From NCBI GenBank assembly GCA_046753505.1, contig JBHHTR010000003.1, positions 1-36,238 of the forward strand: DNA of 36,238 bases, written 5' to 3'. Shown piece by piece: positions 4,763 through 26,733 of the stretch. Position 1 is the stretch's first letter, and every line of letters begins with the position of its first letter. The stretch comes from Thermodesulfobacteriota bacterium (GTDB taxonomy: Bacteria > Desulfobacterota > GWC2-55-46 > S146-70 > JAUXIU01). The notes under the pieces were generated by a model. That model ran no database searches, was not told where the DNA came from, and saw nothing but the letters and a program-made list of their open reading frames with translations. The position numbers were made by a program, and so were the translations under genes.

Positions 4763-5410
4763 ATGAAAACCAAACAGAACCACCTGACCATCGCGCTGCC
4801 GAAGGGGCGTGTCCTTGAAGAGGCTGTAGCGCTCCTGCAGCAGGCGGGAGTCGATTGTTCCGGGGCCTTAAGCAGCACTAGACAGCTCATTTTTGATAAC
4901 GAGGATGACAACATACGCTTCATGGTCATCAGGTCCCAGGACGTTCCCACCTTTGTGGAGTACGGCGCCGCCGACATAGGGATAGCCGGCAAGGACGTCC
5001 TCCTCGAACAGGGGAAGGATCTCTACGAACCCCTCGATCTCGGTATCGGCTACTGCCGGATGGCCGTTGCCGAACCAAAGGGGCTAAGAAACAGCGAATC
5101 TCCCGCCAACTGGAGCCATCTCCGTGTAGCGACGAAGTATCCGAATATCACCTTAAAGTATTTCCTGGAGAGGGGTGTACAGGTTGAACTGATTAAGCTC
5201 TACGGCTCCATCGAGGTGGCCCCTCTGCTCGGCATATCTGATCGGATAGTTGACCTCGTATCGACAGGAGAGACCATGAGAAAGAACGGCCTCGTCGAGA
5301 TAGAGCAGATCATGGAGATAACGGCAAAACTGGTCTGCAACCGGGCCTCACTCAAGACAAAACCGAAGAGGATCAAGGCGATTATTGAGAACCTGCGAAA
5401 GGTCCTCTAG
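4763..5410 (+). CDS. hisG: ATP phosphoribosyltransferase, short form
   Basis: IALPKGR, DVPTFVEYGAAD, ATKYP, GSIEVAP, DLVSTGET; 215 aa with no C-terminal regulatory domain. Confidence 0.97.
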   Translation: MKTKQNHLTIALPKGRVLEEAVALLQQAGVDCSGALSSTRQLIFDNEDDNIRFMVIRSQDVPTFVEYGAADIGIAGKDVLLEQGKDLYEPLDLGIGYCRMAVAEPKGLRNSESPANWSHLRVATKYPNITLKYFLERGVQVELIKLYGSIEVAPLLGISDRIVDLVSTGETMRKNGLVEIEQIMEITAKLVCNRASLKTKPKRIKAIIENLRKVL

Positions 5411-5453
5411 CGGTGAAGAAGTCAGCAAGAGGTGCAGTGAAATGGGAGGTTAG

Positions 5454-5535
5454 GGAAGGTCTGATTAATCCAGACCTTCCGCGATACATGGAAGTATCGA
5501 CATTTTTAGTGTCGGCAAGCCATTGAAAATATTCC
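5454..5535. mobile_element. IS5-like miniature element (family A), 82 bp
   Basis: Starts GGAAGGTCTGATTAA, ends ATTCC, flanked by TTAG/TTAG; homologous to the reverse complement of the right part of 26865-27013. Confidence 0.75.
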
Positions 5536-5650
5536 TTAGATTGAACAAAGACGCCACTCCCCGTAGCACCTCCAGCCGCAGAAATCTGCACTACTCTCCC
5601 CTTTATCCACTGCCAATCTGACCTCAAGTGCACCTTTTGAAATAACCATC

Positions 5651-5680
5651 TTGAAACAAACTATACCGTTGTGGTATAAA
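5651..5680 (+). promoter_or_regulatory. Putative promoter giving a leaderless DUF507 mRNA
   Basis: TTGAAA, 18 bp, TGg-TATAAA; ATG 7 nt downstream, no SD. Confidence 0.5.
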
Positions 5681-5686
5681 AGTGCC

Positions 5687-5968
5687 ATGAAGATACCGAT
5701 CGAACAGGTTGAACGAATATCGTCGCTTATCGTGGCGAGCCTCAAGGAGAAGAAACTCATTGAGTTGAAGAGCAGTGAGTCGGCCATAACGGAGAGGATT
5801 GTTGAGCTCTTTACCCGGAACCTCCATGACGAGGAGGCCCTCAATCGTGATGTTGATAATATCATGAAGAGCCATGCCGGTGAGGTTGAGAGCGGCCAGA
5901 TGGATTACAGGAAGATGTTCAATATGATAAAGTCAAGGCTTGCAAAGGAGCGTGAGATAATCCTGTGA
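5687..5968 (+). CDS. DUF507 family protein
   Basis: MKIPIEQVERIS...EEALNRDV...DYRKMFNMIKSRLAKER resembles DUF507; ATG 5687 preferred over TTG 5651. Confidence 0.75.
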   Translation: MKIPIEQVERISSLIVASLKEKKLIELKSSESAITERIVELFTRNLHDEEALNRDVDNIMKSHAGEVESGQMDYRKMFNMIKSRLAKEREIIL

Positions 5969-6237
5969 GGCTATCTGAAGACCGTATATCCCACATCGCC
6001 CATATCATCGCAGACGGGATATGGGAAGATGATATGGTGGATTTTAAGAGTGACCACGAGGTGCTTACTGAGATCAAGCGGGTTATCTCACACTACTTCC
6101 AGGTAGAGGATAACGCCGATGAAAAGGCGCGGCAGAAGATTCGCTCCATTAAACGGTACATACCTGAGGGAAGCAAGGAGTGGGACATCCTCTACAAGCA
6201 GTATTTTCAGGAAGAGACCGACAAGAAACGTTATTAG
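5965..6237 (+). CDS. DUF507 family protein (second type)
   Basis: MRLSEDRISHIAH...IPEGSKEWDILYKQY; GTGA overlap with the preceding gene. Confidence 0.8.
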   Translation: MRLSEDRISHIAHIIADGIWEDDMVDFKSDHEVLTEIKRVISHYFQVEDNADEKARQKIRSIKRYIPEGSKEWDILYKQYFQEETDKKRY

Positions 6238-6925: not shown

Positions 6926-7662
6926 AGCATGTCCTGACCATAGCCGGTTCAGATCCGTCAGGCGGCGCCGGGATTCAGGCAGATCTGGCAACCTTTTCCG
7001 CCTTTGGTGTAAAGGGCCTATCGGCGATAACGGCTGTCACCGTTCAGGATGGCGGCTCTGTGAATGGGCTCTTTCCCATACCGCCCTCATTTGTCCTTCA
7101 ACAGATTGAGGCCCTCGCCGAGGCAGGCACTATTGATGCGATAAAGATCGGTATGCTCGCAAAGGGGGAGATTGTCACCGCCATTGCCGGAGTGCTCAAG
7201 AGGCTCGACATCGCTAACGTGGTTCTCGATCCGGTCATCACCTCTTCCAGCGGTTTTCCACTCCTGGAAAAAAGTGGGCTGCCTGCCCTCCGGTCTCTCC
7301 TGTCCGGCCTCCTCATTGTCACCCCCAATCTCCTTGAGGCGTCACTCCTTACGGGACGGAAGGTGGTTACGGAAGACGATATGGGAGAGGCGGCGATAAG
7401 GATAGGGGAGATGGGGCCAAGGTATGTGCTGATAAAGGGGGGACACCTCTCAGGAGATGCGGTTGATCTCCTCTATGATGGAGATGTGGTAACGCAGTAT
7501 GTATCTGCGCGCATAGGCAGGGAACTCCACGGCACAGGGTGCATTCTCTCAGCCGCACTGGCCGCCTGTCTCGCCGAGGGAGAGGAAATGGGACGGGCCG
7601 TGGCTAGGAGTAAAAACTACGTTTCCGACTGTCTCAGAGGCACAGACTCTTCAGGGGCCTGA
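6922..7662 (+). CDS. thiD: Hydroxymethylpyrimidine/phosphomethylpyrimidine kinase
   Basis: LTIAGSDPSGGAGIQAD, IKIGML, VVLDPV, TPNLLEA, KGGH, HGTGC; ATGA overlap with the DUF445 stop. Confidence 0.95.
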   Translation: MKHVLTIAGSDPSGGAGIQADLATFSAFGVKGLSAITAVTVQDGGSVNGLFPIPPSFVLQQIEALAEAGTIDAIKIGMLAKGEIVTAIAGVLKRLDIANVVLDPVITSSSGFPLLEKSGLPALRSLLSGLLIVTPNLLEASLLTGRKVVTEDDMGEAAIRIGEMGPRYVLIKGGHLSGDAVDLLYDGDVVTQYVSARIGRELHGTGCILSAALAACLAEGEEMGRAVARSKNYVSDCLRGTDSSGA

Positions 7663-8798
7663 TCGTTGCTCTCGATACCCCGCTCACTAACTTCTCTGCT
7701 GTAGTAAGCGCGTATCTTTTCACGGATCTCTCCCCTGGTGATTATCTTCGGTATCATGAGTTGCTGCCCGGCATCCATGAAGTCGGGGGCCCCTACTTTA
7801 TCGAGATTAGACATATAGATAACCACCCACAGCTCTCTGTTGCTGTAGATACTCTCCTTGGCGGCTATGGCGGCGAGCGATTCATCCTCTCTCTTGACCC
7901 TGTAAGTAGCGGTCCTCTTTTTCCACCACTCCTGACCACCCTCGTCACTCTCTGTTGTGGCATATCCAAAGATACCCTCTATCGAGAACGGCTTGATATG
8001 TTTCATTGAGGCTCTGTCCAGGGCGACCTCGCGGTCTTCCGCTGAAATCTCCCCCCCCTCCTCCAGCTTTAGGAGCCGCTCCTGCTCCAGACGATACTCG
8101 ATCTCCTCTTTCAGCAGAGCAGCGTTCTTAACATCACCCGTTAGCGCTATCTCCTCCTTCCGCATTACTACAAGGCGGGCTTTCAAAGCCTCCTCCGCAC
8201 GGCCGACGGCTTGCCCCCCCTCCCCCTCATCAACCGTTTTCTGCCCAAGTTCCGCATCAGCCAGTCTGGCTACGCCACTGATACTTTCCAGCAGAGCCAG
8301 CTCGGCCTTCACAATCGCCAGTTCTTCAGCCTTCTTTAAGAGGGACTCCTCCGCCATAACACGATCCAACTCTGTCTGCAGGAGTATGCTCTCCGCCTCT
8401 TGTCTCGCCTCCTCTTCTCTCTTTAACTGCTCCGCTGCCTCAGCCTGCCTCTGCTTCTCCTCTGCGGTAACTGCTCCCCTCCCCCCATCTGTTTGAGCCG
8501 ATTGGTTCAAATTCTCTTTGGCCGCCTTCAACTGGGCCTCTCGCTGGATGAGCGCCTCCTCTGCTTTGGCCCTCTCCTCCTTCTCACTCTGAAGAGCCTC
8601 TGTCAACTCCTTTATCTTACCGCTCTCCTCCTTAAGATCCTGCCCCACCTTGACCAACTCTTGTTGCATGTCCCTCTTGCTAACCTCCGTCGCCTCCAGC
8701 TGCTCGGACAGGTCACTTCTCTCCTTATGTCCGACTACCCACGACATTGACATTGAGAAACCGATAAAAACGATTGCTACAATAAGGATATTACCCAT
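7617..8798 (-). CDS. Membrane-anchored coiled-coil protein with C-terminal LysM-like domain
   Basis: N-terminal hydrophobic segment, long E/K/A-rich coiled coil, YRVKREDESLAAIA...LWVVIYMSN...PDFMDAGQQLMIP. Confidence 0.75.
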   Translation of the reverse strand: MGNILIVAIVFIGFSMSMSWVVGHKERSDLSEQLEATEVSKRDMQQELVKVGQDLKEESGKIKELTEALQSEKEERAKAEEALIQREAQLKAAKENLNQSAQTDGGRGAVTAEEKQRQAEAAEQLKREEEARQEAESILLQTELDRVMAEESLLKKAEELAIVKAELALLESISGVARLADAELGQKTVDEGEGGQAVGRAEEALKARLVVMRKEEIALTGDVKNAALLKEEIEYRLEQERLLKLEEGGEISAEDREVALDRASMKHIKPFSIEGIFGYATTESDEGGQEWWKKRTATYRVKREDESLAAIAAKESIYSNRELWVVIYMSNLDKVGAPDFMDAGQQLMIPKIITRGEIREKIRAYYSREVSERGIESNDQAPEESVPLRQSET

Positions 8799-8868
8799 AC
8801 TCTCTACCTCCCTATCGTTTTACGATTAACATAGCGATAGACTGCATTGAATGAACTTTCATAAAAGA

Positions 8869-10278
8869 TTACTCTACCCACTCCCCGGTTACCTCACCGA
8901 TATCGATCTGTACCTGATCGACAAAGGTCGTATACTCATTAAGGAAAGTAAGCTTAATATCATCGGTTGGACCGTTCCGCTGCTTTGCCACAATAACCTC
9001 CGCATCCCTCCGTCTACCGCAGGTACAGAGATCCTTCGGGCAGTCGCACGGGTCATACTGGGCCTTCCGGTAGATAAACATTACAACATCGGCATCCTGC
9101 TCAATCGCCCCCGACTCACGCAGATCGGAAAGTTGGGGCCTGTTCCCTTCACGCTGTTCCGTCCTTCGTGAAAGCTGTGAGAGGGCAATCACGGGGAGAT
9201 CGAGCTCCTTGGCCATCGCCTTCAGCGATCTCGATATATCCGAAATCTCCTGCTCTCTGTTGTCGGACCGGCTTCTACCCCGCATCAACTGGAGGTAATC
9301 GACAACTATGAGATCAAGACCAAGCTCAGCCTTCCATCTCCTGGCCTTGGCCTTCATCTCCAGGACCGTCAACGCAGGAGTATCATCTATATAGATCTTA
9401 GCCTCGTAGAGATTTCCGATGGCGGCAGTCAGTTTGCCCCAGTCCTCCTCCCTGAGAAAACCGCTCCTCAAGCGGCTCAGATCAACACGCGCCTTCGACG
9501 CCAGGAGGCGCTGGACGAGCTGCTCCTTACTCATTTCGAGAGAGAAGACGGCAACCGATTTACCATGGTCAGTCGCCGCATTCTGAGCGACATTCAGACA
9601 GAAGGCCGTCTTGCCCATACTCGGCCTACCGGCAATGATGATGAGATCGGATCTCTGGAGGCCGGCAGTCAACTTGTCGAGATCCTTGAATCCACTGGGA
9701 ATCCCTGTCAGTTGCTCCTTCTTCTCATAGAGCTGTTCGATGGCGTGAAAGGTATCCTTGATTATCTCCTTGAGGGGATAGAAGGAGCGCTTCTCCTTCT
9801 CATGGGCAATCTGAAATATGAGCTTCTCTGCGTCGTCGAGAAAATCATCGAGTGACTCGCCACCTTCGTAGCAGCCGTTAATTATCTCAGTAGATGCGGT
9901 GATCAGCCTTCTTAAGACCGATTTTTCTTTAACGATCCTGGCGTAATAGGCTATGTTGGCTGCCGTGGGTGTCGATTCAGCGAGGGCCCCAAGGTAGGAG
10001 AGTCCACCGACTGCATCGAGGGCGTCAGAGGTCTTGAGGGCGTCAGTAACGGTAATTATGTCTATGGGGGTCTGAGTGTCAAAGAGACCGACCATCAAGC
10101 GGAAGAGCTTTCGGTGGGCCTCACGGTAGAAGTCGCTCCCATCGGCGGAGAGCGTTTCGAGGACTCTTGTTATTGAGTTATTATCAATGAGGACGCCGCC
10201 GAGAACTGAACGCTCTGCCTCAACGTTTTGTGGCGGGACTCTCTGTAGAGCAAAATCGGTGGCGGCTTGTACGGCCAT
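8869..10278 (-). CDS. dnaB: Replicative DNA helicase DnaB
   Basis: PPQNVEAERSVLG, GRPSMGKT, FSLEM, VDYLQL, LSQLSR, DLRESGAIEQDAD, KQRNGP; start ATG 10278 is an estimate. Confidence 0.98.
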   Translation of the reverse strand: MAVQAATDFALQRVPPQNVEAERSVLGGVLIDNNSITRVLETLSADGSDFYREAHRKLFRLMVGLFDTQTPIDIITVTDALKTSDALDAVGGLSYLGALAESTPTAANIAYYARIVKEKSVLRRLITASTEIINGCYEGGESLDDFLDDAEKLIFQIAHEKEKRSFYPLKEIIKDTFHAIEQLYEKKEQLTGIPSGFKDLDKLTAGLQRSDLIIIAGRPSMGKTAFCLNVAQNAATDHGKSVAVFSLEMSKEQLVQRLLASKARVDLSRLRSGFLREEDWGKLTAAIGNLYEAKIYIDDTPALTVLEMKAKARRWKAELGLDLIVVDYLQLMRGRSRSDNREQEISDISRSLKAMAKELDLPVIALSQLSRRTEQREGNRPQLSDLRESGAIEQDADVVMFIYRKAQYDPCDCPKDLCTCGRRRDAEVIVAKQRNGPTDDIKLTFLNEYTTFVDQVQIDIGEVTGEWVE

Positions 10279-14945: not shown

Positions 14946-17042
<2,097 letters not shown>

Positions 17043-20079: not shown

Positions 20080-21255
20080 ATGACCGACTCGAAATCACCT
20101 TCTGCCGCCTGTAAAGCCGGTACGGATATCATCTGGATTGACAACAGCGAGGCGCTGGCCTCTTTTTGCGGTGAGGCAAGGCGTGAGCCATTTATTGCAG
20201 TCGATACCGAATTTCACCGTGAGCGTACCTATTTTGCCAAGCTTGCGCTGGTGCAGGTTGCTCTGCCCGGCAAAATTGCTTGCATTGATCCCCTCGCTAT
20301 CAGAGACCTTCAGCCCCTTGATGACCTGCTTCTCGACAGTAAGGTGCTCAAACTGATGCACTCCGGCAGACAGGATTTAGAGATATTTTTTGACCGTACC
20401 GGCACTGTTCCGGCGCCTCTCTTTGACACCCAGGTGGCGGCTGCTCTCCTTGGGATGGGTGAGCAGACAGGGTATGCCTCCCTCGTAGAAAAGGTGTGCG
20501 GTGTATCTCTGTCGAAGAATCATGCCCGTACAGACTGGATGCGCCGCCCTCTGAACTCTGACGTTATCGCCTATGCAGCTGATGATGTTCGTTACCTTGG
20601 ACAAATCTATCGTACCCTTGACAACTCTCTGACCGATAGGGGCCGCAGTAAATGGCTCGAAGAGGAGCAGGCAATGCTTTTAGCTCCGGCCACCTACGAA
20701 CCGGACATTGATAATGCATGGCAGCGAGTCAAGGGAAGTAATAAGTTGGATGGTCGATCTCTCCCCGTGCTCCAGATACTGGCCGGATGGAGGGAGTGTG
20801 AGGCCCGTGAAACAGATCGCCCAAAGCGCTGGATCCTCTCTGACGAAATCATTATCAACATAGCTCGGCAGCGCCCGAAAAATATGGATGCTCTGGAACG
20901 CATGAGGGGACTGGAAGAGCGGGTCAGAAGAAAGCACGGCCCTAAGCTGCTGACCCTGGTTGCGGATGGTGCAAAAGCGCCCATGCTCAACAGAAAGAGA
21001 GGAGAACGAAAAGCGGTATCTGATGATACCATCGTAGACGCCCTTATTGCAGTTTTAAAGATGCAGGCCCGTCAAAATGATATAAGCGCCGCAATGCTGG
21101 CGTCGAGGGGCGATCTCAACAGAGCAGCCGCAGGTGAACGTGATCTGCCCCTATTTAGAGGGTGGCGAAAGGCGCTCGCAGGCGATGCAATAGTGGCATT
21201 TCTGGCAGGAGATATGAAGTTGAAAACAGAATCGGGCCAGTTGGTTTTGAGGTAA
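20080..21255 (+). CDS. rnd: Ribonuclease D
   Basis: DEDDy exonuclease motifs AVDTEF, HSGRQD, FDTQ, DWMRRPL, YAADD; HRDC domain; GWR near the C-terminus. Confidence 0.95.
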   Translation: MTDSKSPSAACKAGTDIIWIDNSEALASFCGEARREPFIAVDTEFHRERTYFAKLALVQVALPGKIACIDPLAIRDLQPLDDLLLDSKVLKLMHSGRQDLEIFFDRTGTVPAPLFDTQVAAALLGMGEQTGYASLVEKVCGVSLSKNHARTDWMRRPLNSDVIAYAADDVRYLGQIYRTLDNSLTDRGRSKWLEEEQAMLLAPATYEPDIDNAWQRVKGSNKLDGRSLPVLQILAGWRECEARETDRPKRWILSDEIIINIARQRPKNMDALERMRGLEERVRRKHGPKLLTLVADGAKAPMLNRKRGERKAVSDDTIVDALIAVLKMQARQNDISAAMLASRGDLNRAAAGERDLPLFRGWRKALAGDAIVAFLAGDMKLKTESGQLVLR

Positions 21256-21453: not shown

Positions 21454-21466
21454 GAGCAGTGTGACA
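21454..21466 (+). repeat. 13-bp copy of the left arm of the WYL-box palindrome
   Basis: GAGCAGTGTGACA is identical to 23840-23852 and lies just upstream of the WYL gene SD. Confidence 0.7.
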
Positions 21467-21483
21467 ACTCTTGAGGGAGAATA

Positions 21484-22500
21484 ATGCCTCCTGAATCCAA
21501 AAAACTTTATGAAAAGAAGAAGCGGCTTCACAGGCTCCTTGCACTTCTCCGCAAGCTGGACAATCGTGAGAGAATCACGGCGGCTACCCTTGCGAGTGAG
21601 TTCGATGTCAGCAAACGGACGGCGCTGAGGGATATCAGGGATCTCAACGAGTCCGGCTTTGCTCTTTTATTTGACAGAGAACAGGGTACTTACAGCTTTG
21701 CAGACCCCGACTACACCCTCAGAGACTTCAACCTCAACGACAATGAATTGATGGTTCTCTTCCTTGGCGGGCAGATGGCCCACAGTCTGGGCAAGCCCTT
21801 TGAGGACGCCTCAAAATCCCTGCTCAAGAAAGCGTATAAGGAGAGTGGCAGAAAGACCAGAGGGAGGGTGGAGAAGTATCATGAGGAAAACAGGTTCTGG
21901 GTAGACATGGAGCTTGGCGAGGAGTTTGAACAGGTCGAAGGGCAATACAACGCCATCAATGAGGCCATGAACAGGAAGGTAGAACTGGAGATAACCTACG
22001 TGGCGATGCAGTCCCAGGCGGAGACAAGGAGGGCTGTCGCGCCCTACGGCCTCATATTCAAGTACGGTCTCTGGTATCTTATCGGCTACTGCAACCTGCG
22101 CGGGGAGATAAGGATCTTCGCCCTGGACTGTATAAAATATTTCGAGTTAACCGGCAGGCCATACACCATACCGGCCGATTTCCAGATTGCAGAGTACTTT
22201 GAGGCCGGATGGAACATGCTCCGCTATGGCGAACCGGTTGAAGTGGTCCTCAAATTTTCAAAGGAGTACGCACGATGGATAAAACGGCGCAGATGGCACC
22301 CGACACAGGTGATAGAAGAGCAGGAGGACGGCGCCATAATCTTCAGGGCAACCGTGGCGGGCACCATGGAACTCAAGTGGTGGACATACCACTGGATACC
22401 GTACTGCGAAGTCCTCTCCCCACCCGAACTCAGGATAGAGGTCATGGCAGAGATGAAGGAGGTGATGAAAAGATATGGAGAGAGATTGTGCAGAGCCTGA
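21484..22500 (+). CDS. HTH-WYL-WCX transcriptional regulator (PafBC/DriD/YafY-like)
   Basis: N-terminal wHTH (LASEFDVSKRTALRDIRDL), WYL domain (RAVAPYGL...WYLIGYC...RIFALDCI), C-terminal WCX (EVLSPPELR). Confidence 0.93.
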   Translation: MPPESKKLYEKKKRLHRLLALLRKLDNRERITAATLASEFDVSKRTALRDIRDLNESGFALLFDREQGTYSFADPDYTLRDFNLNDNELMVLFLGGQMAHSLGKPFEDASKSLLKKAYKESGRKTRGRVEKYHEENRFWVDMELGEEFEQVEGQYNAINEAMNRKVELEITYVAMQSQAETRRAVAPYGLIFKYGLWYLIGYCNLRGEIRIFALDCIKYFELTGRPYTIPADFQIAEYFEAGWNMLRYGEPVEVVLKFSKEYARWIKRRRWHPTQVIEEQEDGAIIFRATVAGTMELKWWTYHWIPYCEVLSPPELRIEVMAEMKEVMKRYGERLCRA

Positions 22501-22502
22501 CA

Positions 22503-22536
22503 ACGACATAGGGTTGTCATAGGGGTGTGGTAGGGT
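22503..22536 (+). promoter_or_regulatory. Putative WYL-regulated promoter 1 (HNH gene)
   Basis: ACGACA-N6-TGTCAT, then 10 nt, then TAGGGT (TAnnnT, preceded by TGg). Confidence 0.7.
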
Positions 22537-22573
22537 TTTGGACTCATATTATTCGTGTAAGGAGGGCCTGTAG

Positions 22574-22618
22574 ATGGCGAAACGTTACAGGAGAGAAGAA
22601 AAGGGGGGAGAAAGATGA
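22574..22618 (+). CDS. 14-aa upstream mini-ORF (MAKRYRREEKGGER)
   Basis: TAAGGAGG 8 nt before the ATG; its TGA overlaps the next ATG (ATGA 22615-22618). Confidence 0.4.
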   Translation: MAKRYRREEKGGER

Positions 22619-23710
22619 AGTTCAACATGTCGGATAGTTTACAGGACAAAGGAGCAAAGATCTTAGACGAAGTCTACAAGAATATCAACAGTGCAGCAAG
22701 TAGCAACTATGAAGAATTTTATCTTAACCGTTATCTATATCAACGCCTACGTAACAAGGAGCAGAAGGGCAAAAAAGAGATCAAGGAGCAATTATACACC
22801 AAGAATCAGTAGTGTCCGGTAAAAACTCGGAAATTAGTGCATAAACGGGGCAATCATCTGGTCTATTTTTTGCCCGGACAGCATTCAAAACCCCTTAAAA
22901 TAGCTATAAGAGCCTATTTGTACAAAAAAAAGGAAGCTCTTACGATTTCAGAAAAGTCTCTTTTAAATTGAGATTCAGGTTTGCCCGGACAGCATGTCTT
23001 GCCAATGCCTAACCTCTTGAAAAATAATCAATTTATTTTTATCAACAAGGCTTTACCGATGAACTTGAAAGTTTAACCGGACACCAGTGACCAAGAATCC
23101 TAAATGTCATTATTGTGGGGACCCCTTTGCCACTGATAAGGGGGTAGAGCTCCATCGAAAAGATGCGACGCAAGTCTACCCTAAAAGCAATTGTGTGCTT
23201 GTTCATAAAAAATGCCACCCACCCCAAGAAAAAGCTGATAATATAAATAAGAATAGGGTTCATACTAACAAAAGCAATTCTATGCGAAAAGAGGACACAC
23301 AAACTTCAACGCATCAATCCACTACCGTAAAAAGTACAAACAATGCGGGCGGAAAAGATTATTCACAGTATTTGTTCCAAGGCATCAAGTATTGCAAGAG
23401 GAGATTAGTCTTAGCCATTGTAAAGCAATATCTTCAAGATAATCCACATACTTCTTATGCAAAGCTATCTTGTAAATTTCCTACGGAATTACAGGGTTCA
23501 CAAGGAGTTTTTCGGAGAATAGACAACATAATAAACGAAGGGAGATATATGATGGACGATAAGCTTAAGACAGGGGATGGTATAACCATAGCTGTGTGGG
23601 GAGATTGGGGTGCAATAAAAAATAACTATGGCACAGTAAAACAGGATATTGACAACTTTATCAGGCATGTTAAAAAGAATATAGGTTACAATATCAGGAA
23701 GGCCCGATAA
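22615..23710 (+). pseudogene. HNH endonuclease with C-terminal putative DNA-recognition domain, interrupted by a MITE (join 22615-22806, 23099-23710; 267 aa)
   Basis: Removing 22807-23089 plus one ACCAAGAAT copy fuses the two ORFs in frame: LYTKNPKCHYCG...VELHRKD...SNCVLVHKKCH. Confidence 0.85.
22807..23089. mobile_element. 283-bp MITE (family D) with 9-bp target-site duplication
   Basis: TIRs CAGTAGTGTCCGGTAAAA / TTTAACCGGACACCAGTG; TSD ACCAAGAAT at 22798-22806 and 23090-23098; internal 16-bp direct repeat TTTGCCCGGACAGCAT (22869, 22980). Confidence 0.92.
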
Positions 23711-23838
23711 AGGAGCAGAGCATCTTAGAGCGTACACCTAGAGTAATTGACCGACGGTATCGCGCTCTTGATTTACCCTGTACAGCATATTCCTGATGCT
23801 CCCCCCCCCTCAAATAACCTTCTATAATTCAAACCTTT

Positions 23839-23880
23839 AGAGCAGTGTGACACACGGTTGTCACACTGCTCTGTTATTAT
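23839..23880 (+). promoter_or_regulatory. Putative WYL-regulated promoter 2 (AAA ATPase)
   Basis: Perfect 14-bp inverted repeat AGAGCAGTGTGACA-N6-TGTCACACTGCTCT; TGTCAC-N10-TATTAT. Confidence 0.8.
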
Positions 23881-23911
23881 GTCCACCATCAATCCAGAGT
23901 GGAGGTGTGCC

Positions 23912-25780
23912 ATGTCAGGTCAGATCGAAAGAGCGGAGGAGGTTGCGGATCTTCTTCTGAAAATTGCAGATGCGTCATGGGGTGACGGATCGAGATGGAG
24001 TGAGACTGGCGCGATGGAAATAGAAGCCGGTGTGCCCCGTCTCGTCGAACACCCCATCTTTAAAAAACATAATCTCGACGGAAAGGATGTGGTGATCATT
24101 GCCACCCTCTTTGCAAGGTATCTTGAGGACGGAGAGGGGATGGAGGCCGGGGAGATTTTGAGGAGGATTGAGGAGGAGAAAAAGTCCGTCTTCCTCGGGA
24201 TCGATAGGGTTGGACGGTTGAGGGATATTGGTATTCTTGAAACCATAGGGGAGAGTGACAGGGAGCGCCTTGAATACGGCTCCGAAGAGGAATCCACCGC
24301 ACCTCTCTTCCGCGCCAGTCTCACCCTCTCCGCCGCCTTCATAGCCGGACTCTACGGTGGCGCTGAGGTTATGCCCCACAGTCCTTTGAAGCCGTACAAG
24401 GATAACCTCGAATACCTCGCCGATCAGTTCGACAGGATAAAGCTCCTGGTCAATGAAAGTGGGGCGCTCATGCCGGGCCTGCCAATATCGAGAAGGGCGC
24501 GAAGGCGCAGAACCGCCGGAGTGGATAGGGCGCAGGGTGGGAAAGGCGTGGCAGAGATGGAGAGGAGAATAGCGGGGAGGTTGGAGGTGACGGAACGCTC
24601 CTTTCCCTTTGAGGAGTTCAGGAAGAGGACAAAGCTGAGCAGAAAAGAGGAGCTTGTACTTCTTCTGCTCCTTGAGAATGAGATTGCCAGTGGCGGCCAC
24701 TACGACATTGAAGATATGCTCGACATCATAAGCAGTACCACATATGACAAACTGGTCGATAGAACACTTTTCGATAGAGAGGGCCGGTTGATAAAGGAGA
24801 AGGTCATAGAGAAGGTTTCACGCCATCGCCTCTTCGGAAGGGAGGAGTTCATAAAACTGAACAACAACCTGAAGGCAAGGTTTCTTGAGAAAAAGGGGAG
24901 CCGAAGGAGGGCGGCGCTGAAAGATGATGACTTCTTCGAGGTTGTCAAGCCATCGGTCTCTATGGAGCAGGTCATCCTCCACCCCGCAACCCGTGAGGAT
25001 ATCGGAGCCGTGATAGAGATGATTCGGGGCAATACAGCAGGCGTCCTGCACGAGTGGGGAGTCAACGGAAGCAACCTTACACGCCCTTCATCAGGCAGGA
25101 AGGGGCGCCACTCCGTTACGATGCTCTACCACGGCGCACCCGGCACGGGCAAAACCCTTACGGCGCACGCAGTCGCTCATGCCCTGAAGAGCAGACTCCT
25201 GACCTTTGACTGTTCAAGGATACTGAGTTGCTGGGTGGGGGAGAGTGAAAAGAGTACAAGAAGGATATTTGACAGGTATCGTGAGTTATCGAAGGGGATG
25301 AAAATCCCACCAGTGCTCCTTCTGAACGAGGCTGACCAGTTTCTGCACAGGCGCATTAACGCCACAAGGTCCGTGGAGAACATGCACAACCAGATGCAGA
25401 ACATTTTCCTTGAACAGTTGGAGCAGTTTGAGGGTCTCCTCATCGCCACGACCAATCTTGTGGAAAACCTCGACCCCGCCTTTTCGAGAAGGTTTGACTA
25501 CAAGATTTGCTTCAGGAGACCGGGACCGGGTGAGAGGCTTAAACTGTGGCAGATTCACATGCCCCGCAAGGTTCCCATGGACGAAGATGTGGATATTGAT
25601 TTTCTCGCCGAATACTACGACCTGTCGGGAGGACAGATCGCCGTTGTGATCCGCAATGCCGCCACAAGGGCCGCAAGGAGGGGAGACAAGATGTATCAGG
25701 AAGACTTGCTGAAGGCCTGCAATGATGAGATTGCCGGAAACTTTGATGAAAAGGCAAGAGGGAGGATGGGCTTTTGTTGA
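23912..25780 (+). CDS. AAA+ ATPase with large N-terminal (probably winged-helix) region
   Basis: Walker A GAPGTGKT, pore loop WVGESEK, variant Walker B LLLNEAD, ATTN...LDPAFSRRF, C-terminal MGF; SD GGAGG before ATG 23912. Confidence 0.92.
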   Translation: MSGQIERAEEVADLLLKIADASWGDGSRWSETGAMEIEAGVPRLVEHPIFKKHNLDGKDVVIIATLFARYLEDGEGMEAGEILRRIEEEKKSVFLGIDRVGRLRDIGILETIGESDRERLEYGSEEESTAPLFRASLTLSAAFIAGLYGGAEVMPHSPLKPYKDNLEYLADQFDRIKLLVNESGALMPGLPISRRARRRRTAGVDRAQGGKGVAEMERRIAGRLEVTERSFPFEEFRKRTKLSRKEELVLLLLLENEIASGGHYDIEDMLDIISSTTYDKLVDRTLFDREGRLIKEKVIEKVSRHRLFGREEFIKLNNNLKARFLEKKGSRRRAALKDDDFFEVVKPSVSMEQVILHPATREDIGAVIEMIRGNTAGVLHEWGVNGSNLTRPSSGRKGRHSVTMLYHGAPGTGKTLTAHAVAHALKSRLLTFDCSRILSCWVGESEKSTRRIFDRYRELSKGMKIPPVLLLNEADQFLHRRINATRSVENMHNQMQNIFLEQLEQFEGLLIATTNLVENLDPAFSRRFDYKICFRRPGPGERLKLWQIHMPRKVPMDEDVDIDFLAEYYDLSGGQIAVVIRNAATRAARRGDKMYQEDLLKACNDEIAGNFDEKARGRMGFC

Positions 25781-26733
25781 ACCAGTCTGCCTGCTTCAGG
25801 AGAGCCATTGCCACCCTTTTCCTCGTTACCACATCAATACTCTTTTATGCCTGTTCAGCTCAGGCAGAGTTTCATGTAGAGGCACAGGGGGCGCAATATA
25901 CCCTGGCCGCATATACCGTGCAATATGGCAAGACTGGTCCACGGCAAGCATATGGCAGAACTAGTGTTACAGACATTTCTACTATTGGAAAGGGTTTGAG
26001 GCGCATTAGACGATTCTTACTCTGGACCTTTTACGGCGCCGCTGTAAGGGAGCGTTTGAGAAGGAATCAAGTGCTGGTAAAGGGGGGCTGTTTTAAAATG
26101 GGCGACTCCTTCGGTGACGGGTTTAGGAGTGAAAAACCTGTACACGACGTATGTGTCGACAGCTTTTATATTGAGAGGTATGAAGTAACCCAGCATGAGT
26201 GGTATGTGGTTATGGACGAGACCCCCTCTTTTTTCAATCGTTGCAGTGATTGTCCGGTGGAAAGTGTAATATGGAAGGAGACGCAGGAGTTCGTAAGGAG
26301 GCTTAACAACCTGACCGGCATGAAGTACCGCCTGCCGACCGAGGCCGAGTGGGAGTACGCCGCAAGGAGCGGCGGCAGGAGGGAGAGATGGGCAGGAACG
26401 AGCAGCAAAGAGGAGCTTGGAGTGTATGCCTGGTACGAGGATAATGCCTCTAAGAAGACACACCCTGTTGGAGAAAAGAGGGCGAACGGCATTGGTCTTT
26501 ATGACATGAGTGGCAATGTTAACGAGTGGGTTCAGGACTGGTACGCAAAGGATTACTACAGTAACACTCCCCGTGACAACCCCAGAGGGCCTTCGTCCGG
26601 AGAGGACAAGGTGCTCCGTGGTGGCTCCTTCGGCATAGCGAAGTTGGCGCGTACAGCCAATCGGAACTTCTTCTTTGCGGAGCATAGTTTAAAATACTTC
26701 GGTCTCAGATTAGCCCTCTCCGCTCAGGAGTAG
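25774..26733 (+). CDS. Secreted FGE-sulfatase/SUMF1-fold (CLec) protein
   Basis: Signal-peptide-like N-terminus (AQA), FKMG, YEVTQ, RLPTEAEWEYAAR, GLYDMSGNVNEW, VLRGGS; start uncertain. Confidence 0.88.
   Translation: MLNQSACFRRAIATLFLVTTSILFYACSAQAEFHVEAQGAQYTLAAYTVQYGKTGPRQAYGRTSVTDISTIGKGLRRIRRFLLWTFYGAAVRERLRRNQVLVKGGCFKMGDSFGDGFRSEKPVHDVCVDSFYIERYEVTQHEWYVVMDETPSFFNRCSDCPVESVIWKETQEFVRRLNNLTGMKYRLPTEAEWEYAARSGGRRERWAGTSSKEELGVYAWYEDNASKKTHPVGEKRANGIGLYDMSGNVNEWVQDWYAKDYYSNTPRDNPRGPSSGEDKVLRGGSFGIAKLARTANRNFFFAEHSLKYFGLRLALSAQE

Follow-up and report, generated by a model that had tools for sequence, protein, structure and literature searches.

We identified, in a 36,238-nucleotide stretch of DNA from a Thermodesulfobacteriota bacterium (assembly GCA_046753505.1, contig JBHHTR010000003.1, positions 1-36,238; hereafter the window, part of a genome totalling 2,210,536 bases), a gene for a transcription factor with winged helix-turn-helix (wHTH), WYL and WCX domains, two operator-promoter boxes of common pattern, and a gene for an AAA+ ATPase. 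These elements probably form a local regulon, in which a homodimer of the regulator, of the type of DriD from Caulobacter crescentus, activates two promoters that carry a -10 element only. The boxes with their -10 elements are unique in the genome, the box is conserved before orthologues of the ATPase gene in other bacteria, the WYL and AAA genes are linked there, and the regulator agrees with DriD in its base-reading residues and in the geometry of its promoters. WYL regulators are emerging as switches that respond to nucleic acids and serve in DNA-damage responses and phage defence, and few of them have a described operator, mode of action and set of targets. At this locus all three are readable from the sequence, and the regulon is strictly local. 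The genes concerned all lie on the plus strand, in the order rnd, WYL gene, 65-codon open reading frame (ORF), 207-codon ORF, AAA gene, FGE gene and malic enzyme gene, and the features of the locus are as follows (coordinates of the window).

20080-21255, plus strand: rnd.
21454-21466, plus strand: isolated half-operator, a copy of the 13-mer GAGCAGTGTGACA (exact-repeat search of the window).
21484-22500, plus strand: wHTH-WYL-WCX transcription factor, 338 amino acids, DriD-like (Pfam; best solved relative 8tp8).
22504-22536, plus strand: operator-promoter 1, CGACA-N6-TGTCAT-N10-TAGGGT (pattern searches; foreign-site matrix).
22615-22812, plus strand: predicted 5' fragment of an HNH-domain gene, 65 codons (alignment to a protein of locus L116).
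22807-23090, no strand assigned: repeat of 284 bp resembling a miniature inverted-repeat transposable element (MITE), inside the HNH gene (inverted and direct repeats; copies in the genome).
23087-23710, plus strand: predicted 3' fragment of the HNH gene, 207 codons from GTG (L116 alignment; motif).
23838-23880, plus strand: operator-promoter 2, TGACA-N6-TGTCAC-N10-TATTAT within a palindrome with arms of 13-15 bp (pattern searches; foreign-site matrix).
23912-25780, plus strand: AAA+ ATPase, 622 amino acids, with N-terminal tandem winged-helix domains (Pfam; structure model).
25774-26733, plus strand: predicted secreted protein of FGE-sulfatase fold, 319 amino acids (Pfam).

The two operator-promoter boxes

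The first-pass annotation of this DNA had described two promoters downstream of the WYL gene that share an operator pattern and lack a recognisable -35. Pattern searches of the window and the genome confirmed both boxes, the full pattern GACA-N6-TGTCAY-N10-TAnnnT being found at 22505-22536 and 23849-23880. The palindrome of box 1, CGACATAGGGTTGTCA (22504-22519), begins 4 nt past the WYL stop codon and is followed by T and by the -10 hexamer TAGGGT at 22531-22536, and that of box 2, TGACACACGGTTGTCA (23848-23863), is followed by C and by TATTAT at 23875-23880. In both boxes the half-sites are GAC-N8-GTC, and 11 nt separate GTCA from the -10. The promoter scan called no sigma-70-type -35/-10 pair at either box, in good agreement with that description.

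The window contains the pattern YGACA-N6-TGTCR twice, where 0.11 matches are expected, and none of 100 shuffles reached two or more. A scan of the whole genome, which had been proposed with the annotation, returned only two matches of the full pattern, both at this locus, and none of the reversed control pattern. The bare core GACA-N6-TGTC is not enriched in the genome (54 strand-counts, comparable to other spacings), and the distinctive feature is the pair of boxes together with the -10, rather than the core. An independent matrix was constructed from 9 sites of other loci, with the sites of the window left out. When the genome was scanned with this foreign-site matrix, box 2 ranked first (26.0 bits) and box 1 second (23.6 bits), followed by scores of 19.1 and 15.0 bits. 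The third-ranked site (contig C31, position 9010; 19.1 bits) was dismissed because it is located inside a coding region.

The 13-mer GAGCAGTGTGACA is present in three exact copies in the window, of which two form the arms of box 2 and the third, at 21454-21466, stops 17 nt short of the WYL start codon. No partner half-site was seen in the sequence for this third copy, which may be an autoregulatory site or the relic of a divergent box. The sharing of the 13-mer between 21454 and 23840 hints at local copying of sequence, and this, together with the lack of over-representation of the core, is what might be expected if the boxes were a chance pair or a functionless local duplication. This explanation is very improbable: besides the outcome of the shuffles, the boxes were recovered independently by a matrix of other organisms' sites, and the box is kept before orthologues whose N-terminal parts are just 35-40% identical as proteins. 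In addition, a minor strain variant with 14 differences over 204 nt carries two changes in box 1 (22511 and 22524), both confined to spacer positions.

Box 2 is also predicted to form a stem of 15 pairs, including 7 G-C pairs, at 23838-23873, followed by the T-rich tail TTATTATG, and its arms of 13-15 bp extend far past the 5-bp core of box 1. It could therefore be mainly a Rho-independent terminator of the HNH gene, with the likeness to box 1 being secondary. We consider this improbable, because the sites upstream of orthologous AAA genes retain the GACA/TGTCA core and the spacing to the -10 with no long stem, and because box 2 stands at the top of the genome in the foreign-site matrix with its -10 part included. 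Besides, the roles of terminator and promoter are compatible with each other.

Recurrence of the regulator, the box and the ATPase in other bacteria

We fetched 80 loci from genomes (L015-L094) and 22 from metagenomes (L095-L116). The loci of the ATPase family (n=68) comprise 46 bacterial loci (L015-L060) and all 22 metagenome loci, and the other 34 loci (L061-L094), which carry only CDC48-like AAA genes, served as controls. With an iterated profile, 22 of the 46 bacterial and 10 of the 22 metagenome loci proved to have a WYL gene nearby, in contrast to none of the 34 controls; the resulting 32 of 68 is a lower bound, since many contigs are short. After clustering of the ORFs of the family loci, the AAA and WYL genes turned out to be the sole widely shared real genes, the remaining large clusters representing antisense shadow ORFs of the AAA gene.

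Of 55 AAA genes, 9 (a count that takes in the window itself and one duplicate pair) have the pattern GAC-N7/8-G[TA]C-N11-13-TAnnnT upstream, as compared with 7 of 634 other genes of the same loci. Representative boxes are GACATAGTGTTGTCAC-N10-TAAATT in L107, GACATAATGTTGTCAG-N10-TATAAT in L112 and GACTAACCTTTGTCAT-N10-TAAAAT in L105. When 770 kb of family loci were scanned with a matrix that included the window's own sites, 20 sites of at least 18 bits were identified, and each was assigned its downstream gene on the same strand. All but one of these sites (the exception being L107:6257) are on the strand of the AAA gene, 12 of them directly before it, and several loci carry two or three boxes. 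The expectation of the first-pass annotation that homologues of the ATPase go together with WYL genes and with the box agrees well with these counts and with the ranks given by the foreign-site matrix, and WYL regulator, box and tandem-winged-helix AAA+ ATPase are the conserved core of the system.

The layout of the window, a WYL stop codon followed by a box, is repeated in L015, L016, L019, L107 and L116, and in L016 and L116 cargo genes lie between WYL and AAA. L107 carries in addition a box 14 nt before the WYL start codon, in the opposite orientation; this divergent box resembles the driD promoter, which is described as bidirectional (PMC13004042). The genes adjoining the WYL-AAA pair elsewhere, or lying under a box with it, are mostly of repair type, including AddA/AddB-like proteins, a DUF2779/Cas4-like nuclease (6 loci), a beta-CASP nuclease, a RecN-like protein, an Ogg glycosylase, a NucS-like protein, other PD-(D/E)XK nucleases and a ResIII helicase. 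The recurrence of WYL gene, box and ATPase in distant bacteria suggests a conserved and so far unstudied stress or defence module.

Several minor observations were made on these loci. In the window and in L095 a gene for NAD-dependent DNA ligase is located near the pair, at 14994-17039 of the window (about 7 kb upstream of the module) and at L095:5743-7812 (directly divergent from the AAA gene), which may reflect chance or shared synteny. L103 carries a truncated N-terminal AAA copy (5289-6101) and a full copy (7413-9269), with a box before each and a third box further upstream. In five Bacteroidota loci (L028, L029, L034, L048 and L052) the AAA gene is preceded by palindromes of TGCC-N-GGCA type, for example CTCTGCC-N7-GGCAGAG in L028, which may be a different operator, used by a diverged WYL clade. 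Short frames of about 49-140 amino acids in three related genomes (G016:C43:7281-7463; G024:C62:18932-19078 and C32:20196-20342; G010:C4:79292-79429) match only the last 45-60 residues of the ATPase with 56-60% identity, and may be scattered remnants of the gene.

The regulator, the ATPase and the proposed mechanism

The WYL protein matches HTH_11 (7e-11, residues 17-62), WYL (1.8e-18, residues 156-220) and WCX (3.3e-18, residues 250-327) of Pfam, all above the cut-offs and all in a single chain. Its best solved relative is 8tp8, which is aligned over the full length with an E value of 4.9e-14 and is taken as DriD, as it agrees with the DriD residues given in PMC10853764; the PafBC structure 6sj9 is matched (8e-13) on the WYL part. 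The DriD site is given as ATACGAC-N7-GTCGTAT, with the consensus CGxC-N7-GxCG and the conserved bases G2/C4 and G12/C14, of which G2 and the guanine paired with C4 are read by Arg37 and Arg41, Glu40 reading position 1 (PMC10853764). When the window protein is aligned to 8tp8 with HMMER, its R45 and R49 fall on the two base-reading arginines, and L48 takes the place of Glu40, the reader of the variable position 1. This arrangement suits a GAC/GTC half-site whose first base is free. Among the seven residues listed as contacts of DriD with single-stranded DNA, four are identical in the window protein (Y168, R178, Y192 and R204).

DriD is an activator in an SOS-independent response to DNA damage, and the likeness to it extends from the three-domain build to the promoters. 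DriD promoters are described as having no -35; their site covers the -35 position, and its distance to the -10 is constant (PMC13004042); the palindromic GnC...GnC site of the window is located in the same manner over the -35 position of promoters without a -35. In the "optimised -35" version of the didA probe, TTGACA stands 17 nt before CAATCT (PMC13004042), and by this spacing CAATCT is read as the didA -10. The didA oligonucleotide then has GTCG, 11 nt and CAATCT, in good agreement with GTCA, 11 nt and the -10 in both boxes of the window. Moreover, the half-operator upstream of the WYL gene corresponds in its distance from the start codon to DriD homologues, whose genes are described as preceded by a site at about 17 nt from the start codon (PMC10853764). 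There are differences from DriD too. In geometry the only one is the spacing of the half-sites, wider by one base in the window. The flanks are TGACA/TGTCA in the window and ATACGAC/GTCGTAT in DriD, the sequence similarity is distant, and the regulon consists of two local promoters instead of the scattered repair and division genes didA, bapE, recA, recJ and dnaG. The main target here is an AAA+ ATPase, a protein that does not figure in this list of DriD targets.

The first-pass annotation had cited mycobacterial PafBC, by its account an activator of TGTCGG-N10-TAnnnT promoters, as an analogue. PafBC is likewise a WYL activator that responds to single-stranded DNA and acts just upstream of the -10 at promoters without a normal -35 (PMC11804915, PMC13004042). 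The likeness in regulator type, site position and promoter type notwithstanding, PafBC pairs two WYL proteins in a heterodimer and binds a short non-palindromic motif (PMC13004042), in contrast to the single WYL gene detected in this genome by tblastn with the WYL protein and to the palindromic operator of the window. The homodimeric DriD, with its GnC-N7-GnC palindrome over the -35, therefore appears to be the better analogue, and the comparison with PafBC was not upheld. The same annotation had considered the circuit to be local and independent of LexA. This view is supported by the two matching operator-promoters without a -35, and, as the genome carries two lexA genes, the WYL circuit would add to the SOS response as a separate system rather than replace it.

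The ATPase matches WHD (PF22977, 1e-12) and AAA (PF00004, 1.8e-27) of Pfam. Its start is most likely ATG 23912, located 6 nt past GGAGG (23901-23905), because the N-termini of homologues agree with it and GGAGG precedes it; a TTG inside box 2 was rejected in its favour. The model of the N-terminal part shows two winged-helix units, with a mean predicted local distance difference test score (pLDDT) of 71.6 and a predicted template modelling score (pTM) of 0.43. In a Foldseek search of this model against PDB nothing was found at E values of 0.001 or below, MarR/PadR-type and tandem-winged-helix proteins appearing at 0.03 or above. The single AAA module matches the D2 module of VAT/p97 at about 1e-36 to 1e-37, and contains GAPGTGKT, WVG, SRR and TTN, which we take to be Walker A, pore loop, arginine fingers and sensor 1, respectively. 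The protein thus resembles the VCP-like ATPases p97/Cdc48 in its classic AAA module, and differs from them by two winged-helix domains in place of the Cdc48 N domain and by the replacement of the Walker B Asp with Asn. Residues 469-475 (about 25316-25336 of the window) read LLLNEAD where IFIDEID is aligned, the catalytic Glu being kept, and the Asn is invariant in all five relatives aligned. Clustering at the 50% level leaves more than 100 full-length representatives of the family, and the clusters with PF22977 and PF00004 in the Atlas, many of them from Campylobacterota and some of these large, are named only "ATP-binding protein". A full-text search for the accession found no paper naming PF22977, and a literature search on the pairing of WYL regulators with winged-helix AAA+ proteins in DNA damage found nothing.

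On the basis of these comparisons, the WYL/WCX pocket would bind a ligand, most likely single-stranded DNA, and the ligand-bound dimer would then bind the GACA-N6-TGTC palindrome at the position of the -35 hexamer and recruit RNA polymerase to a promoter with a -10 only. Box 1, directly after the WYL stop codon, would drive the HNH-domain gene, since split by the MITE in this genome, and box 2 would drive the ATPase gene, with the FGE gene probably on the same transcript. The ATPase may be a hexameric protein remodeller, which the winged helices would bring to DNA or to a partner, and it may act in DNA-damage handling or phage defence. We infer activation rather than repression, the single-stranded DNA signal and the job of the ATPase by analogy. 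Induction by DNA damage or phage, and the functioning of the genes as a nuclease-ATPase system, are likewise inferences.

As a more far-reaching and rather doubtful proposal, the ATPase could be the dedicated output of widespread WYL activators that sense single-stranded DNA, i.e., a protein segregase, induced by damage or infection and carried to DNA by its winged helices, that pulls stalled, cross-linked or phage proteins off DNA, the variable nucleases under further copies of the box working with it. If true, it would be a bacterial counterpart of the role of p97/Cdc48 in chromatin extraction. In any event, the WYL-box link provides an experimental handle on a conserved and uncharacterised WHD-AAA family, and extends the promoter logic of DriD well past the alpha-proteobacteria.

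The principal competing explanation is a phage-defence module, in which the WYL dimer is a repressor of the BrxR/CapW kind that occupies the palindrome and blocks RNA polymerase until a signal of single-stranded DNA or infection frees the expression of HNH nuclease and ATPase, both of which would attack the invader. Like the window protein, BrxR and CapW are wHTH-WYL-WCX regulators heading an accessory gene set, and WYL repressors guarding immune systems are on record, as CapW, which senses single-stranded DNA (PMC11662680), and BrxR (PMC9122601). The sporadic distribution of the ATPase and the low G+C content of the HNH segment (0.38-0.41 over about 22550-23800, against 0.50-0.55 on either side) are in line with such a module. 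So are the PADLOC matches, to IetA models (1.8e-25) on the AAA domain and to PDC-S57 (8.7e-6) on the C-terminal domain of the HNH protein, and the pairing of an ATPase with an HNH nuclease recalls Septu. We regard this explanation as possible, if rather unlikely. With no usable -35, either promoter would have little basal activity to repress, and DriD is both the nearest relative of solved structure and the model that the promoter geometry matches. BrxR and CapW repress BREX and CBASS, respectively, and the BrxR operator, with 11-bp arms and a 5-bp spacer, is located downstream of the -10 (PMC9122601), in contrast to the upstream position in the window.

The PADLOC run, which the first-pass annotation had suggested, gave matches to single models and no whole defence system. 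Among the five window proteins scanned there was no match to a BREX, CBASS or other system protein, the PDC-S57 match (residues 64-191 of the 207-codon fragment) is to a candidate family and is weak, and the IetA match is limited to residues 361-622, that is the generic AAA module, which TRIP13 matched too. No match to the serine protease IetS was found among the same five proteins, and none is encoded beside the AAA gene, the wider genome lying outside this search, so that the locus differs from IetAS as well. The winged-helix part of the ATPase gave no tblastn match in 72,556 plasmids or 50,697 phages, and the neighbours elsewhere, being mostly of repair type, also speak against a defence repressor.

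Returning to the DriD-type activator, a number of findings weigh against it or limit its reach. An operator over the -35 position could equally suit a repressor, and box 2 scores as an intrinsic terminator too. The half-sites of the window are spaced by N8, in contrast to N7 in DriD and in L015, L016 and L019, for example CGAC-N7-GACG and CGTC-N7-GTCG in L016 and GGAC-N7-GTCC in L019. Three of the seven residues contacting single-stranded DNA differ, so the ligand may be something other than single-stranded DNA. In the contigs of sequencing runs X1, X2 and X4, and in part of those of X3, position 22422 reads A>G and one base is missing at 22426. Both changes are among the final 25 codons of the WYL gene; its C-terminus may be frameshifted in some strains, or one assembly may be wrong at the C-run. 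No RNA run was found for the stretch, a result that is not counted as evidence. In many family loci no box was detected before the AAA gene, among them L096, L097, L098, L104 and all of the Bacteroidota loci, and upstream of the AAA gene in L095 the palindrome is present with no -10 match. With Asn for Asp in Walker B, the ATPase activity is putative. Finally, a true orthologue of the ATPase was found in only one of 40 related genomes (G024), as a truncated remnant, the rest being generic FtsH/CDC48 matches, and so scattered a distribution would suit a mobile defence gene no less than a repair gene.

Genes accompanying the WYL-AAA pair

The HNH gene is one gene split by a MITE-like insertion. 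Residues 181-236 of a 283-amino-acid protein of L116 align to the 65-codon ORF (36% identity, E value 1e-7; phmmer 2.1e-6), and residues 239-277 of the same protein align to the start of the 207-codon ORF (38% identity, 1e-6; phmmer 5.1e-4), leaving the two alignments only two residues apart (236 to 239). The stop codon of the 65-codon ORF is at the edge of the 284-bp element, and the frames are continuous, as judged by eye, when read across the duplicated ACCAAGAATC. The insertion is indicated by 19-nt imperfect terminal inverted repeats and the flanking direct repeat ACCAAGAATC, by multiple copies in the genome, including two further full copies of 100% identity (C23:15584-15870 and C162:2550-2833), 5 partial copies at contig ends and 2 diverged copies, and by a unitig of its own with a depth of 147-204, against 13-27 for the flanks. 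No MITE-free joint was found in the contigs of runs X1-X4, which does not show that none exists. The element is present in about 7-11 copies per genome, and it probably causes part of the fragmentation of the assembly, because many contigs, among them C109, C21, C13, C220 and C149, end inside it.

The 207-codon ORF contains, as read from the sequence, the motif CxxC...H...N...HxxCH, which aligns with the HNH end of the L116 protein, and a C-terminal domain of unknown function, and this fragment gave no match in Pfam, HNH models included. The first-pass annotation had counted an HNH nuclease as a member of the module. The HNH-like motif is indeed present, but the gene is broken by the MITE here, and a related gene was found at only one other locus, L116. 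The idea that the low-G+C segment represents a single simple insertion between the WYL and AAA genes was rejected, because L016 and L116 share the order of cargo genes followed by a second box or the AAA gene. No match to RNase D was found in the 5 relatives examined for the borders of the island.

The FGE protein matches FGE-sulfatase of Pfam (9e-45), and its N-terminus resembles a signal peptide. The start of its gene overlaps the AAA stop codon by 7 nt with no terminator in between, and for this reason the two are probably co-transcribed here. The FGE protein had also been included in the module by the first-pass annotation. This assignment did not hold, since homologues were found in only 2 other loci among the 68 of the family (L049 and L097), neither adjoining the AAA gene, and at least 6 further matches to the protein are located elsewhere in the genome; the gene is treated as a passenger, incidental to the module. 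The closest FGE homologues in relatives (G024:C87:8796-9395 and G016:C11:13276-13851; 61-62% identity) are located within open frames of 651-654 amino acids, twice the length of the window gene.

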